Positions 8,871 through 44,732 of a stretch of 45,507 nt of DNA are shown here, piece by piece. The position numbers were made by a program, and so were the translations under genes. Every line of letters starts with the position of its first letter. The first letter of the stretch is position 1. The stretch comes from Candidatus Shapirobacteria bacterium (GTDB lineage: Bacteria > Patescibacteriota > Microgenomatia > UBA12405): assembly GCA_028704885.1 (NCBI GenBank), contig JAQWEN010000001.1, positions 175,172-220,678 on the forward strand, given 5' to 3'. The notes under the pieces are model-generated. The model was given only the letters and a program-made list of their open reading frames with translations, did not search any database and was not told the origin of the DNA.

Positions 8871-8910
8871 TGTCCTATAATCTTGACAGATTATTTTTTT
8901 GGGCTATAAT
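8871..8910 (+). promoter_or_regulatory. Sigma70-type promoter of orphan cassette A with TGTCCTATA box
   Basis: TTGACA 8883-8888, 16-bp spacer, TATAAT 8905-8910; box at 8871-8879. Confidence 0.75.
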
Positions 8911-9044
8911 CCGGGTGTTATTGTCGAAGCGACGATAATGGGCGAAGTTAGGTTAGGCACGCGTAAGCAAATGCACGATAAAAGCTAAGGCAAATGCAAG
9001 AAGCAGATAACAGTGCTAAGCACATTAAAAGGAGAGTGTAATTC

Positions 9045-9671
9045 ATGCATCATCTAAGGAAAGTCGCTGCAAAAATCGGATCACTTGACTTTAAAACGTG
9101 GGATAGAAGACGGGAATTTGCTGATTTGGTGGCAAAGTGCCGGGATGGTTATCAAGCCATATATCAGAACCCGAAGGGTAAATTATTCGAGATGGAGAAC
9201 TTTTTATTGGATGAAAACAGAACTGTCGGAAAATTAAACAGTGATGGATCGAAGATCTTTATTAAGGGTTGGATGAATGTCGTTAATGTTGACGGTTATT
9301 ATCAATTGTTTTCAATGAATGGGAATTTTGGTTTTTGTAATGGAAAAGGCAATCTTAGCCTCGAAGCTCACGCAAAAATCTGTAATAAAGCAAGATTAAA
9401 AGATCATCAGGGATTGATTCAATCATATCTGATTGATGACACAGAGAACGTGATCTACTTGGTGACAGAGTTTATTTTTTCCGGGAAACCTGAAGAACTG
9501 GACCTTTTCTATGGAACCAAAAAAATTCTTCTGGTCAAGGAGAGGCAGAAAGTTGGTTTTATTGATGATGGCAAATTATATGACGCCAATGAGATCAAGA
9601 AGATCTTTGGACCAACATCCATGTCGGCAATTATGATCAATCCTATGGCGGCAATGTATTTGTCAATTTGA
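9045..9671 (+). CDS. Orphan hypothetical protein (cassette A)
   Basis: 208-aa ORF with SD AAAAGGAG and its own promoter and terminator; no motif recognised. Confidence 0.75.
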   Translation: MHHLRKVAAKIGSLDFKTWDRRREFADLVAKCRDGYQAIYQNPKGKLFEMENFLLDENRTVGKLNSDGSKIFIKGWMNVVNVDGYYQLFSMNGNFGFCNGKGNLSLEAHAKICNKARLKDHQGLIQSYLIDDTENVIYLVTEFIFSGKPEELDLFYGTKKILLVKERQKVGFIDDGKLYDANEIKKIFGPTSMSAIMINPMAAMYLSI

Positions 9672-9691
9672 ATTATTCACTCGATCTTCCT

Positions 9692-9740
9692 AGAGCGTGG
9701 AACTATTTGCTTATAAAGCAAAATTCCACGCTCTTTTTTT
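9692..9740 (+). terminator. Two-tier intrinsic terminator
   Basis: AGAGCGTGGAA/TTCCACGCTCT outer stem, TTTGCTT/AAGCAAA inner stem, then a T run. Confidence 0.85.
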
Positions 9741-10529
9741 TCAAAATTTTCCAAGTAGTTTAATCTCAAGCTCAAATTGAAAACCGAGAATTTCTTGAGT
9801 TTTAGATTGAATTAGACTGATTAAGGCCAAATAATCTTTAGCAGTGGCGTGACCATTGTTGATAATAAAATTGCCATGTTTTGGGTTGATTTGCGCGTCG
9901 CCGATAGAATAACCTCGTAAATTTAGTTGTTGATCAATAATCATGCCGGCGGGGTCATGACCTTCTGGGTTTTTAAAAACAGAACCCAAAGAATTCATTA
10001 ATTGAACTTGAGATTTTTTTTGGATAATTTCGGAAACTTCAGCTTTGGCAGAAGTTGAGTTACCAGGGATTAATTTTAAAACAGTGGAAATAATAAAATC
10101 GTTGTATTTTTCAACTGAATCAACAAATTTGGAAAAATGATTTTTATTAACTCCGTGAATATCACCGATAATGGCACCACCAACAGTAGAAGGAATATAG
10201 GCAAATTCTTCAAGGCCGAGTAAATTGTGGTCGAGAGTGAAATTGATTAAAGAAGATAATTGAGTACCGGAAGAAACTTTTACCTTATTATCAGGTAGAA
10301 GTTCGATTTCTTCGGAGTCATTTTTGATGACCAGGCCGCGAATGCCAGAATCAGAAATTAAAACATTTGAACCATTGCCGAGGATGGTAATGGGTAAATT
10401 ATTATCTTGACCATATTTAATAGCGGCAATTAACTCCTCTGAATTTTTAGTGTGAATGAAAAAGTCAGCAGGACCACCGATTTTAACGGTGGTGTAAGGA
10501 GCAAGAAGAACGTTTTGTTGAATATCCAT
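9741..10529 (-). CDS. murB: UDP-N-acetylmuramate dehydrogenase (short form)
   Basis: LAPYTTVKIGGPAD, LGNGSNVLISDSGIRG, IPSTVGGA, SLGSVFKNP, HGNFIINNGHATAKD, FELEIK. Confidence 0.9.
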   Translation of the reverse strand: MDIQQNVLLAPYTTVKIGGPADFFIHTKNSEELIAAIKYGQDNNLPITILGNGSNVLISDSGIRGLVIKNDSEEIELLPDNKVKVSSGTQLSSLINFTLDHNLLGLEEFAYIPSTVGGAIIGDIHGVNKNHFSKFVDSVEKYNDFIISTVLKLIPGNSTSAKAEVSEIIQKKSQVQLMNSLGSVFKNPEGHDPAGMIIDQQLNLRGYSIGDAQINPKHGNFIINNGHATAKDYLALISLIQSKTQEILGFQFELEIKLLGKF

Positions 10530-10639
10530 AAGTGATTATAACCTAAACGAAAAATTGCAACTTCAAAATTCGTTTTTAGGTTTAAATAGTGGCTTATAAA
10601 ATAAATGTTTTTGAATAATAAAAAAATATGGGATGTTGA

Positions 10640-10648
10640 TGTGGATAA
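10640..10648 (-). promoter_or_regulatory. Single consensus DnaA box
   Basis: TGTGGATAA (TTATCCACA on the minus strand) in the murB-ruvC divergent spacer. One copy only, so function is unproven. Confidence 0.35.
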
Positions 10649-10705
10649 GTGGGTAAAATTGAAGATATCCTATATTTTTATTAGGCTGATTTGCTATCAT
10701 TAATT

Positions 10706-43348: not shown

Positions 43349-43372
43349 TGATTAATGATAGCAAAAAAGAGA

Positions 43373-43438
43373 AAAGGCCGGGGTTTGTATGAGTTTTGAT
43401 CGTGAGATCAAAGTTGTCATACAAACCTACCGGCCTTT
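43373..43438 (-). terminator. Three-tier 66-nt hairpin terminator of cassette G
   Basis: AAAGGCCGG/CCGGCCTTT, GGTTTGTATGA/TCATACAAACC and TTTGATC/GATCAAA stems, then a T-rich tail on the minus strand. Confidence 0.85.
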
Positions 43439-43472
43439 AATTAAAGTTAACTTGTGTTAACTTGGGTAGTTG

Positions 43473-44444
43473 TTATTTGGTTTCGATTGCGGGGAGGATG
43501 ATAGCACTGGCATCAATCTTACTATTAATAATAGTAGGAGTGTTAGTGCCAAGCTTGGTGTAGCCATTGAAAAAGCGAACTGCCTTGAAGTTACCGTTTG
43601 TCAACTTATCGTTGATAAGAGTAGCAACATCATTTGCAGTAGCATTTTCAATAGTGTAGCAACCCCACTCGGTCCAGATGTATGTGTCTGATGTCAAATA
43701 AATGACATCGGCGGTTGATTCTTTCGAGTCGTAGGCTGGAGTCTTCTTACTGTTGTTGTCGTTATCAAAGATAGCGACGTCGCCAGAAATTAAAGTTCCT
43801 GCCTTGGCTAAGAACCAGCTTTTTGAGGGTTGATCAAGGCCGATGGAGATGGGAACGGTTTCAATTGGGGTGATAGTTGTGCCTGTAGTTGTGGCTGCGG
43901 TGGTTTCAACAGTTGTGGCTGCGGTGGTTTCAACAGTTGTGGCTGCGGTGGTTTCAACAGTTGTGGCTGCGGTGGTTTCAACAGTTGTGCCTGCAGTAAA
44001 ACTATTGGCTAACAAAATGCAGCCAACAATCAATACCGGAAGAACAAAACTTGTCAAACCACCCCCAAGAAACCAATACTTTAAGGCTTTGCCGACTTTG
44101 AATTTGGTGGTCCCCAAAGTGACTTCGAGAATCCAGAAAATAGAACCAACAATGACCATGACGGTGCCGATGAAAGGGAAGATTGCAACCCAGCTCATGA
44201 AGAGTGGGAAGGCAATCAAACTGAAGATCATAGCAACGATGGAAACGAGAATGAGAATGATCGGGGCAACAAAATTTTTGTACATACCAATACCTCCTAG
44301 TATTTGGTTTTTGAAGTAAATCAAAAGTTTTTTGATGTTTTTTGTCGGTTCATATGGTCTTCCACAATTCCAACAAAAAATGGCCGATGCATTTCTGGTT
44401 TTTGAGCCGCACTTTAGGCATTCGTATGCCGGTTTAGTGCTCAT
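43473..44444 (-). CDS. Orphan membrane protein (cassette G): zinc ribbon, TM helices, Thr-rich stalk, C-terminal domain
   Basis: CLKC...CWNC, three hydrophobic segments, TTAATTVE repeats; SD AGGAGG before both ATG 44444 and in-frame ATG 44285. Confidence 0.8.
   Translation of the reverse strand: MSTKPAYECLKCGSKTRNASAIFCWNCGRPYEPTKNIKKLLIYFKNQILGGIGMYKNFVAPIILILVSIVAMIFSLIAFPLFMSWVAIFPFIGTVMVIVGSIFWILEVTLGTTKFKVGKALKYWFLGGGLTSFVLPVLIVGCILLANSFTAGTTVETTAATTVETTAATTVETTAATTVETTAATTTGTTITPIETVPISIGLDQPSKSWFLAKAGTLISGDVAIFDNDNNSKKTPAYDSKESTADVIYLTSDTYIWTEWGCYTIENATANDVATLINDKLTNGNFKAVRFFNGYTKLGTNTPTIINSKIDASAIILPAIETK
43887..43982. repeat. Perfect 24-bp x4 coding tandem repeat
   Basis: AGTTGTGGCTGCGGTGGTTTCAAC four times, flanked on both sides by AGTTGTGCCTG. 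Confidence 0.97.
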
Positions 44445-44526
44445 TCAAAAACACCTCCTTCCTTTTGAAGCGGGCCTACCGAATGGTTTCCCATGCTTCT
44501 TGTATATAAACAAACTCTACCTGATG

Positions 44527-44577
44527 GTAAGTCTGATAACTGAAAATTAGAAGTTAATTTTCAAATATCAGACTTAC
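44527..44577. other. Long hairpin in the cassette G leader
   Basis: GTAAGTCTGATA/TATCAGACTTAC (12 bp) and TGAAAATTA/TAATTTTCA (9 bp). Confidence 0.7.
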
Positions 44578-44692
44578 TTTAAGGTATTCAAATAACAACT
44601 ATTTTTTAAAGTACTGCGTAGAGGGGGAAGTAAGCGCAAATGCCTGCTTTCACTAAACGCTAGTTAATAATCTAGATGATTATTATGCCTGG

Positions 44693-44732
44693 AGTGTATC
44701 ATTTAATATCAATAAAGTCAAGTTATAGGATA
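44693..44732 (-). promoter_or_regulatory. Sigma70 promoter of cassette G with TATCCTATA box
   Basis: TTGACT(44721-44716)-17 bp-TACACT(44698-44693); box at 44724-44732. Confidence 0.75.

Follow-up and report, generated by a model that had tools for sequence, protein, structure and literature searches.

The locus analysed here raises the question of what a nine-nucleotide box, TATCCTATA, is doing at the promoters of small orphan genes and upstream of ruvC in a 45,507-nucleotide stretch of Candidatus Shapirobacteria DNA (the window). A preliminary description had read it as the operator of one repressor that defines a regulon of orphan genes and is possibly tied to DNA damage. The five exact copies it reported were all found in place (Table 1), against 0.37 expected, and none of 100 shuffles reached five. 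All nine copies that it listed lie between ORFs, as claimed, and all are oriented like the gene downstream. Its account of their placement also held: TTGAC starts 2-3 nt 3′ of the box in the heads of cassettes A, D, and G, the box is within the 17-nt spacer in B, C, and the second D copy, and the D copies, which flank the -35, are spaced 22 bp apart. The listed one-mismatch copies (8871, 19703, 20350, and 22625) are present, but their class is not enriched (15 versus 14.6 expected), and six more in the window were missing from that list. Three of these four are validated by longer sequence context only, and the copy at 22625 makes up one of the two arms of a distinct palindrome, AGGTTATAATAACCT, in the promoter of gene 22660-23235. 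The copy at 19703 was considered as the rplJ promoter and rejected, the true promoter being at 19613-19585; this decayed head retains only a weak -10 (CAAAAT) and has no ORF.

Table 1. Coordinates of the box copies, promoters, and genes in the window.
Feature	Position (strand)	Description
Exact TATCCTATA copies	10666(+), 15747(-), 16315(-), 20372(-), 44724(-)	
Cassette A head TGTCCTATAATCTTGAC	8871..8887 (+)	promoter TTGACA-16-TATAAT (8883-8910), 12/12, drives 9045-9671
Cassette A gene	9045..9671 (+)	fast-evolving family
ruvC module	10640..10674 (+)	TGTGGATAAGTGGG, 12 nt, TATCCTATA; ~31 nt before true ruvC ATG 10706
Cassette B and C genes	15324..16237 (-)	~118 and 129 aa
Cassette B box, exact	15747..15755 (-)	in spacer; TTGACT at 15768, TATAAT ends 15740
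Cassette C box, exact	16315..16323 (-)	in spacer; TTGCAA at 16332, TATAAT ends 16304
rplJ-rplL promoter	19585..19613 (-)	TTTACA-17-TATAAT, 5′ edge of L10 leader; without box
Decayed head TATCCTACAATCTTGAC	19695..19711 (-)	just past D terminator; 24/25 identical to D head
Cassette D gene	19777..20199 (-)	140 aa
Second D box TACCCTATA	20350..20358 (-)	in 17-nt D spacer, reads TACCCTATAAT
Cassette D head, exact TATCCTATAATCTTGAC	20364..20380 (-)	-35 TTGACT 20368-20363, -10 TATAAT 20345-20340
Palindrome AGGTTATAATAACCT	22616..22633 (+)	overlaps box variant TAACCTATA; 9 nt upstream of -10 (22643-22648)
Candidate regulator gene	22660..23235 (+)	191 aa, DNPH1/Rcl-like N-domain
Cassette G head TATCCTATAAC-TTGACT	44716..44732 (-)	TACACT 17 nt later

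Genome-wide, the intergenic enrichment proposed as a check is present: 10 of the 13 exact copies fall in the 8.5% of the genome outside crude ORF calls, and 9 intergenic copies are seen where an order-3 Markov model of intergenic DNA predicts 0.83. Among the G/C-containing middles of TATNNTATA, CC alone is enriched. The idea of a 9-mer peculiar to the window had to be corrected, as the real unit is a 17-nt head spanning the whole genus. TATCCTATA is the front half of this 17-base promoter head, TATCCTATAATCTTGAC, and the full unit is TATCCTATAAT followed after 1-2 nt by TTGAC, which joins the box to a consensus -35. Allowing up to two mismatches, we find the 17-mer in 37 of the 38 genus genomes (122 matches versus 9 in the reversed control), and exact 17-mers number 32 against about 0.015 expected, whereas the 9-mer alone is hardly enriched in these relatives (253 copies versus 211 in the reversed control). 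The 17-mer is rare in sister genera, and none was found in other families of the order. As judged from these genomes, the element, with consensus TATCCTATAA(T), is lineage-specific to one genus of Candidatus Shapirobacteria. Conservation begins sharply at the first T of the box, the sequence 5′ of it being unrelated between copies, and no part of the box is kept better than the CC (positions 4-5). Many letter-perfect 17-mers precede unrelated ORFs within and between genomes, same-strand copies spaced 300-1000 bp recur through the genus, and the box is also found alone, without the -35 part. A scan for the leader-hairpin pattern was unspecific and left 6 usable Shapirobacteria promoters from 120 loci; all six, retrieved by the hairpin and not by the box, carried the box and TTGAC.

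Sigma-70-type promoters combine a TTGACA-like hexamer, a 16-18 nt spacer, and a TATAAT-like hexamer with A2 and T6, and the box-bearing promoters have this form. A TATAAT-like -10 follows the -35 by 16-17 nt in all 30 box-headed genus copies examined; A scores 12/12, D and B 11/12, and C 10/12, and all four rank among the top seven promoter-like sites of region 8800-22800. Copies within the spacer occur in B, C, and D and also in another genome of the genus (G009, locus L012). Species differ in whether one orthologous promoter has the box, and those lacking it keep the same -35 and -10; the box is therefore an optional addition to the core promoter, not a component of it. The core promoters already match the consensus, and some orthologs manage without the box, which speaks against a need for activation. 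These comparisons establish the element, its extent, conservation, and positions, and its gain and loss. They support the view that the box is a genuine selected cis-element common to the promoters of otherwise unrelated orphan genes, and that it lies where an operator would be expected, either 5′ of the -35 or overlapping it, or else in the spacer, at promoters of consensus strength.

The units under box promoters are self-contained, with a 5′ hairpin, an SD, a small ORF, and a terminator behind the promoter; their genes either are ORFans or change very rapidly. The cassette A protein is 27-34% identical to its counterparts at the same locus in four relatives, where the neighbouring WecG is 58-81% identical. 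No relative of the cassette C protein was found in a word search of 5.8 billion proteins and no homolog of the cassette D protein among the 37 other genus genomes; both genes are ORFans. The cassette proteins, B and C included, had no match in Pfam, PHROG, or PADLOC, nor did four other box loci in Rfam. Cassette G, whose head has orthologs elsewhere (L029, L033), places a 5′ hairpin and a ~250-nt leader ahead of a gene for a Zn-ribbon/TM/Thr-rich protein (43473-44444). Other box copies precede ileS-, uppP-, and rfbB-like genes, named from N-terminal residues alone. The genes in the slot 5′ of rplJ differ from genome to genome, and cassette D is bracketed by a 24/25 direct repeat, the distal copy of which is a dead promoter.

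The box is probably a protein-binding control site. We tentatively favor, at somewhat less than an even chance, that it is the operator of a putative repressor gating very strong promoters; both the binding of a protein and repression as its effect are what we infer. A sequence-specific DNA-binding protein would bind the box beside or over the -35 and the spacer, and, until freed by a signal, would hold the consensus-strength promoters closed. From the original operator and regulon proposal, the shared, selected element and the operator-like positions stand, whereas the 9-mer as the unit and the tie to DNA damage do not. The spacer copies (B, C, D, L012) and the D pair flanking the -35 count for an operator. 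Several observations count against it: most repressors bind repeats, and the site is asymmetric and mostly single; all copies are co-directional with the gene, while a purely steric repressor needs no orientation; the letter-perfect 17-mers resemble module copying more than the degenerate sites of a usual regulon; and there are strong cassette promoters that have no box (21522).

That same fixed orientation, with every copy co-directional with its gene, and the almost fixed gap of 1-2 nt to the -35 at dozens of non-orthologous promoters would suit an activating upstream promoter element, either a UP-element-like contact for RNA polymerase (alpha or sigma region 4) or a class-II-type activator site centred near -42 that boosts a dedicated promoter class. 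We consider activation not very likely, as no such action is possible for the copies within spacers (B, C, D2, L012), the core promoters are already consensus, and box-less orthologs keep the same -35 and -10. UP elements are A/T-rich tracts at -40 to -60 with no specific G/C positions, and the box overlaps the proximal UP subsite in position only. It resembles UP elements and class II activator sites in lying at -47 to -37, in fixed orientation and adjoining the -35, but it has an invariant CC core and no A/T tract, occurs in spacers too, is dispensable at orthologous promoters, and does not occur at the genus's rRNA promoters, which are the archetype of strong promoters. An rRNA-type upstream element was dropped because the rrn promoters of the genus are box-less; CCTATAAT near the 16S gene in five genomes (including G000) is part of a divergent promoter on the other strand. 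The box could also need no trans factor and be an extra -10-like element (TATCCT and/or TATAAT), giving tandem or overlapping promoters or being tolerated in AT-rich spacers. It does contain two hexamers with T-12, A-11, and T-7; cassette D has TTGTCA 16 nt upstream of TATCCT, and leaderless-looking starts follow some copies, e.g., at C1:42536. A -10 or extended -10 hexamer has A at -11 and T at -7 plus a -35 or TGn partner, and the box does not behave as one except in G008, where its TATAAT is the sole -10, 17 nt past TTGACT (L093). The last T is often C or A in the heads (TATAAC and TATAAA are frequent), the ruvC series breaks both hexamers (TGTCCT, TGACCT, and similar) while CCTATA stays, and -35 matches upstream of either embedded hexamer are at background level. 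Moreover, CC before TATAAT is 1.6-fold enriched versus 2.4-2.6-fold for Gn, the general promoters of this genome preferring TGn and not CC at this place, and such a reading would not account for the constant distance of 1-2 nt to the next -35. The caveat that some copies could simply be extra -10 boxes is weakened by the variants, the ruvC series, and the background -35 matches, and we regard this explanation as unlikely.

A different kind of explanation is that the 17-25-nt head is conserved through copying, as a reused or mobile promoter piece in which the 9-mer is not read, perhaps with a further role as a recombination junction, homologous or site-specific, for cassette gain, loss, and swap. 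The numerous exact 17-mers before unrelated genes fit copying, as do the recurrent same-strand copies 300-1000 bp apart, the 24/25 repeat around cassette D with its dead distal promoter, the rplJ slot that differs in every genome, and the ORFan status of C and D. There is a precedent in "Promoter reuse in prokaryotes" (PMC3575422), which describes highly similar promoter sequences before non-homologous genes, and the near-identical box promoters before non-homologous genes, within and across related genomes, belong to this class; they differ in that the conserved piece is 17-25 nt only and stops at the -35, inside the promoter. Still, copying alone cannot hold 17 nt while the spacer and flanks diverge at orthologous promoters; that orthologous sites conserve the head suggests that the piece itself is under selection. 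A further point against copying alone is that some boxes stand by themselves, with no -35 attached. Tyrosine-recombinase core sites (dif/att) have two inverted arms around a 6-8 bp centre, and the box has no left arm or inverted second arm, with nothing conserved 5′ of it. The box as part of dif was dropped, since the true dif-like site, GTCGCACAA-TGTATC-TTTTGCGAC, is another sequence ~300 nt away, beside the single xer gene. On balance, copying as the whole explanation seems doubtful.

The proposed link to DNA damage found no support. An SOS-type operator, of LexA or an equivalent, would agree with the exact box 5′ of ruvC and with the LexA homolog encoded in the genome, but we regard it as extremely improbable. 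LexA/SOS boxes are palindromic operators shared by the lexA promoter and repair genes; the box is no palindrome, none was found in the searched region upstream of lexA, and its remaining targets are ORFans and housekeeping genes. In ruvC orthologs only CCTATA(A) is kept, followed by any base. The copy at ruvC is part of another conserved module, TGTGGAWAAGTGG-N15/16-CCTATA, found genus-wide as a fixed pair with the DnaA-box-like TGTGGAWAAGTGG as the conserved partner. DnaA boxes read TTATCCACA with at most 1-2 changes, the ACA end being especially kept. The box shares their 9-nt asymmetric form and TATCC but no more, its 3′ half being TATA and not ACA, while the neighbouring TGTGGATAA does match. 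The box and a perfect TGTGGATAA occur together at two conserved loci, 5′ of ruvC and beside xer; one of these is at a GC-skew break beside the dif-like site, so it looks like the terminus and not the origin.

If the box is an operator, the product of gene 22660-23235 is a weakly supported candidate for its binder. The gene borders the variable cassette slot beside rplJL in the genus, and its own promoter carries box variants in 12 of 36 genus genomes, only in the subclade nearest this genome; in about two-thirds of the genus genomes with the 17-mer, this promoter is box-less. The N-domain matches the DNPH1 fold (profile E 1e-10, Foldseek TM 0.8). DNPH1/Rcl enzymes (2′-deoxynucleoside 5′-phosphate N-hydrolases) have a phosphate-binding SxR segment and a catalytic Glu in GYELG; in the candidate, S8 and R10 of the phosphate site are invariant and the nucleophile Glu position is Leu (GYLI), suggesting that it is probably a binding domain and not an enzyme. 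Ribbon-helix-helix (RHH) domains form intertwined dimers from an N-terminal beta-strand and two helices. The C-terminal 45 residues of the candidate have a strand-helix-helix pattern with a low-confidence fold, and the monomer model leaves residues 147-153 unstructured before helices 154-166 and 173-190 (pLDDT 50-63); this tail, which matched nothing in Pfam or among PDB sequences, is possibly RHH-like. Two family-f2 genomes (G035 and G038) have the box at the xer-adjacent locus, and the candidate is absent at least from G035. This absence, the box-less candidate promoters, and the low-confidence C-terminal fold were counted against the candidate. Among other factors, an alternative sigma factor was dropped because the lone small ECF-like sigma (C1:26.5 kb) has no box upstream; rpoD was not found in this 92%-complete assembly. 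An 85-aa HTH_17/excisionase-like protein (12836-13093) was also rejected, as TATCCAATA in its promoter varies at the CC and the protein is found throughout the order, whereas the 17-mer is genus-wide.

Taken together, a wider picture can be drawn, improbable as one joint claim: a Shapirobacteria platform in which the 17-nt head is pasted before ORFan cassettes and doubles as a homology patch for cassette duplication, swapping, and loss, a one-component dead-DNPH1/RHH repressor silences them, and a deoxynucleoside monophosphate, which may come from DNA breakdown or a modified-base phage, releases them. Such a platform may allow portable, gated expression of newly acquired or newly born genes. 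CPR bacteria are ultra-small, have few regulators, and are mostly not cultivable, and our literature search found no paper joining CPR/Patescibacteria with promoter motifs or start-site mapping. The 17-nt head is a concrete handle for finding a regulator in these bacteria, a marker for accessory or ORFan expression units in metagenome bins, and a ready-made strong promoter, and possible switch, for emerging genetic tools. Here, orphan genes are seen acquiring ready-made control signals.

Among known systems, phage morons and integron cassette arrays are autonomous single-gene units in hypervariable slots between core genes, and the cassettes resemble them in this and in the repeated sequence at their boundaries. 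The cassettes differ in that every unit is under a promoter of its own and that neither an attC-like hairpin site nor an integrase is present; the one Xer-like recombinase has a distinct dif-like site to itself. For the operator that we favor, the closest comparison is with the small ribbon-helix-helix repressors Arc/Mnt of P22, CopG, and omega of pSM19035, whose operators are at consensus promoters. Unlike theirs, the operator role here is predicted from sequence, the box is asymmetric and usually single, it keeps a fixed distance to the -35 and is letter-perfect across species, and no match to an RHH profile was detectable for the candidate. What the box shares with those operators is a short site that overlaps or adjoins the -35 and also lies in spacers of strong promoters, placed singly or as direct or inverted sites, one site common to several promoters, and a regulator gene with its own site, here in part of the genus only.

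The preliminary description had reported five exact copies of a box, the 9-mer TATCCTATA (in the form ATCCTATAA(T/C) in Shapirobacteria cassette promoters), and all five were recovered where it had placed them, against 0.37 expected and with 0/100 shuffles reaching five. The four one-mismatch copies that it had picked also exist, but the class as a whole is not enriched (15 versus 14.6 expected), and these four therefore count only through their longer context. The claim that the sites are intergenic held, as 9/9 lie between ORFs, and all nine are co-directional with the downstream gene. 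Intergenic enrichment extended beyond the window (C1:175172-220678) to the whole source genome (G000; assembly of 779 kb, 32% G+C, 92% complete), in which 10 of the 13 exact copies fall in the 8.5% non-coding fraction, defined as the remainder after crude ORF calls. Nine intergenic copies of TATCCTATA were seen versus 0.83 expected under an order-3 Markov model of intergenic DNA. CC was the sole enriched G/C-containing middle among TATNNTATA words, and the looser TA-N-CCTATA was intergenic in 19/28 cases.

At four window sites the box directly abuts a −35 element, giving a 17-nt head of box, 1-2 nt and TTGAC; three belong to cassettes D, A and G, which are orphan or fast-evolving gene units with their own promoters, and one is a copy after D (Table). 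Allowing up to two mismatches, the 17-mer matched 122 times in 37/38 genomes of the GTDB genus, versus 9 for a reversed control, and 32 matches were exact where base composition predicts ~4e-4 per genome, or ~0.015 overall. With at most one mismatch it was found in 28/38 genus genomes and in 7/66 genomes of the family's other genera, and was absent from every genome searched in the order's other families. The bare 9-mer was hardly commoner in relatives than its control (253 versus 211, 24 genomes). An alignment of 30 copies anchored on the 17-mer revealed no conservation upstream of the box's first T, a stretch often occupied by the T-run of the terminator before it, and a TATAAT-like −10, mostly GCTATAAT, 16-17 nt 3′ of TTGACn in 30/30 copies. 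In a promoter scan of 8800-22800, A, D, B and C all ranked among the seven best promoter-like sites. Judged by sequence pattern, box-headed sites appear to be ordinary sigma-70-type promoters with one additional conserved block, spanning −47 to −37.

Table. Features in the window and, where marked C1, elsewhere on the same contig
Feature	Position (strand)	Sequence	Remark
D head		TATCCTATAATCTTGAC	box + −35
A head		TGTCCTATAATCTTGAC	box + −35
Copy after D	19703	TATCCTACAATCTTGAC	box + −35
G head		TATCCTATAAC-TTGAC	box + −35
B promoter		TTGACT-ttttttaTATCCTATAg-TATAAT	box within 17-nt spacer
C promoter		TTGCAA-atcTATCCTATAagtgt-TATAAT	box within spacer
Promoter-like site	15924-15951 (−)	TTGACA-16-TATTAT	11/12 promoter-like; inside cassette C reading frame, toward cassette B
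217-aa orphan	20736-21389
Promoter of 217-aa orphan	21494-21522 (−)	TTGACT-17-TAGAAT	strong; without box
Multi-copy repeat	19411-19489		between L10 leader and rplJ; also C1:126404 and 126751
Cassette leader	20300-20345
Place equivalent to relatives' box upstream of wecG	~7700-7800		without TATCCTATA
ruvC module	10600-10705	A-run, atatggg.tgttga, TGTGGAWAAGTGG, 15-16 nt, CCTATA	murB-ruvC gap
ruvC ATG	10706		no SD in front
85-aa HTH_17 protein	12836-13093		beside ruvB
HTH_17 gene with promoter and 5′ leader	12836-13260 (−)	TTGACAcactaatatccaatatgttttactga...	promoter and leader almost invariant
191-aa protein	22660-23235 (+)
ECF-like sigma	C1:~26.5 kb
pta-xer gap	C1:269465-270343 (1465-2343 of retrieved locus L045)		outside the window

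Two promoter samples were chosen independently of the box: the post-wecG intergenic regions of 28 genomes, and six leader-hairpin promoters. After the wecG stop, about 10 of the 28 genomes have the box and a −35 with a gap of 1 or 2 nt, four (G016, G042, G045, G010) have the same TTGAC-17-TATAAT and 5′ hairpin without the box, and in another (G008) the box's own TATAAT serves as the −10, 17 nt past TTGACT. The leader-hairpin promoters have the box and TTGAC in 6/6 cases, with differing spacers and flanks. The block is therefore constrained where present, yet an add-on gained and lost by lineages. On the other side of wecG, some relatives (loci L084-L087, L096, L098, L104, L108) carry an exact TATCCTATA ~35 nt past the stop of the gene upstream, opposing both genes' direction.

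Downstream of the heads lie small genes that resist annotation and are unrelated to one another. No homolog of the cassette D protein was found among 37 other genus genomes, and none of the cassette C protein in a 5.8-billion-protein word search, and four species have relatives of the cassette A protein at the equivalent locus that are only 27-34% identical to it, compared with 58-81% for its neighbour WecG in those species. Long leaders precede the genes for Zn-ribbon/TM/Thr-rich proteins in cassette G and in many of the relatives' units. Ahead of rplJ, the slot differs in gene content in every genome, and the true rplJ promoter is without a box. The copy after D is a head in decay, matching that of D at 24/25 positions and followed by a weak −10 (CAAAAT); the 217-aa orphan has a box-less promoter, so the element is not in every cassette of the slot. 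The repeat before rplJ reaches up to five copies in relatives and is probably a palindromic hairpin repeat.

The preliminary description had cautioned that some copies of the box could be extra −10 boxes, and two acceptable −10 hexamers, TATCCT and TATAAT, are embedded in it. This now seems unlikely: heads often read TATAAC or TATAAA, matches to a −35 ahead of either hexamer are at background, and ruvC orthologs break both hexamers and keep CCTATA(A) (tgtCCTATAAg, tgaCCTATAAt, tggCCTATAAg and similar). In the genome's general promoters, the preference ahead of TATAAT is also for G at two bases' distance (2.4-2.6-fold) and not for CC (1.6-fold). We tentatively read the box as the operator of a protein acting as a repressor, a reading that falls somewhat short of probable. 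It is favoured by the strict CC core, by sites both in spacers and flanking the −35, by the pair of D sites, 22 bp apart, of which the second lies within the spacer, and by core promoters that are already at consensus and predicted to function without the box. The spacer arrangement recurs in a relative, G009, as TTGAAA-aaTATCCTATAatttgt-TACAAT.

An activating or RNAP-contact element would suit the fixed orientation and the gap of 1-2 nt, but the copies in spacers and the box-less rRNA promoters of the genus make it doubtful. Letter-perfect copies, tandem arrays and the 24/25 repeat around D could also mean that the head is kept by pure copying or recombination, and promoter reuse is a published precedent (PMC3575422); however, just these 17 nt are conserved at orthologous promoters and a second arm is absent, so that copying by itself is improbable, to about the same degree as an extra −10. 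As a type, the element would pair promoter reuse with an operator or upstream promoter element. A literature search returned no paper on promoter motifs or the mapping of start sites in CPR/Patescibacteria.

The suggested tie to DNA damage was not supported: a LexA homolog is encoded, its promoter is without a box and no damage theme was seen among the targets, making SOS control by LexA highly improbable. Other genomic boxes precede genes that look, from N-terminal residues only, like ileS, uppP, rfbB and one for a PEP-utilising enzyme. Ahead of ruvC the genus pattern is ...aaaaaaatatggg.tgttgaTGTGGAWAAGTGG-N15/16-CCTATA, and there the box makes up half of a separate, fixed two-part module whose other half is the DnaA-box consensus. 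A related pairing, three tandem CCTATAAT followed ~50 nt on by TGTGGATAA, stands beside the only Xer-like recombinase gene. The pta-xer gap is an 880-nt conserved non-coding region that also contains TGTGGA(A/T)AA and a dif-like GTCGCACAATGTATCTTTTGCGAC; because GC skew drops from 0.33 to 0.08 exactly there, it is a likely terminus, with a single-recombinase Xer/dif system. Along C1 (735 kb), skew ranges from ~0.02 to 0.35 and is positive throughout except in two 10-kb bins near zero (−0.013, −0.016), which is not the usual two-armed strand asymmetry.

As to what might bind the box, a search of G000 for sigma factors (tblastn, Sigma70_r2) found no rpoD-like gene; the primary sigma probably falls in the 8% that the assembly lacks. 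The only sigma found is a 166-aa ECF-like protein with a downstream membrane protein, without a box. The HTH_17/excisionase-like protein beside ruvB shows 85-98% identity across the family and occurs in 121/132 order genomes; it gained no support as the binder, since the TATCCAATA of its promoter differs between genomes precisely at CC. Conservation at this locus is unusually strong for a small regulator. The 191-aa protein, a candidate binder, is a lead, not a case. It occurs in 37/38 genus genomes, most of the family and only three genomes of the order's other families, and its gene adjoins the variable slot for cassettes beside rplJL. Its N-terminal domain resembles DNPH1/Rcl (profile E 1e-10; Foldseek TM ~0.8), with S8 and R10 invariant and the nucleophile Glu replaced by Leu; the last 45 residues form a strand-like segment and two helices in a low-confidence model and matched no RHH profile. 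In G000 and six closely related genomes, TA[ACG]CCTATAG stands in its promoter 9-10 nt ahead of the −10; a further five genomes have an exact box there in reverse, which heads a divergent cassette. The other two thirds of genus genomes have no box in this promoter, and neither do 16 examined genomes of the family's other genera or one examined from a different family of the order.

Cassette leaders, in the window and in relatives (loci L018, L022, L028, L030), open with a hairpin and continue with a CTTTAACAA-like sequence, an arrangement also present 3′ of the conserved 16S promoter (CTTTAAAAT). This hairpin and CTTTAACAA-like sequence resemble the boxB-boxA antitermination signal.
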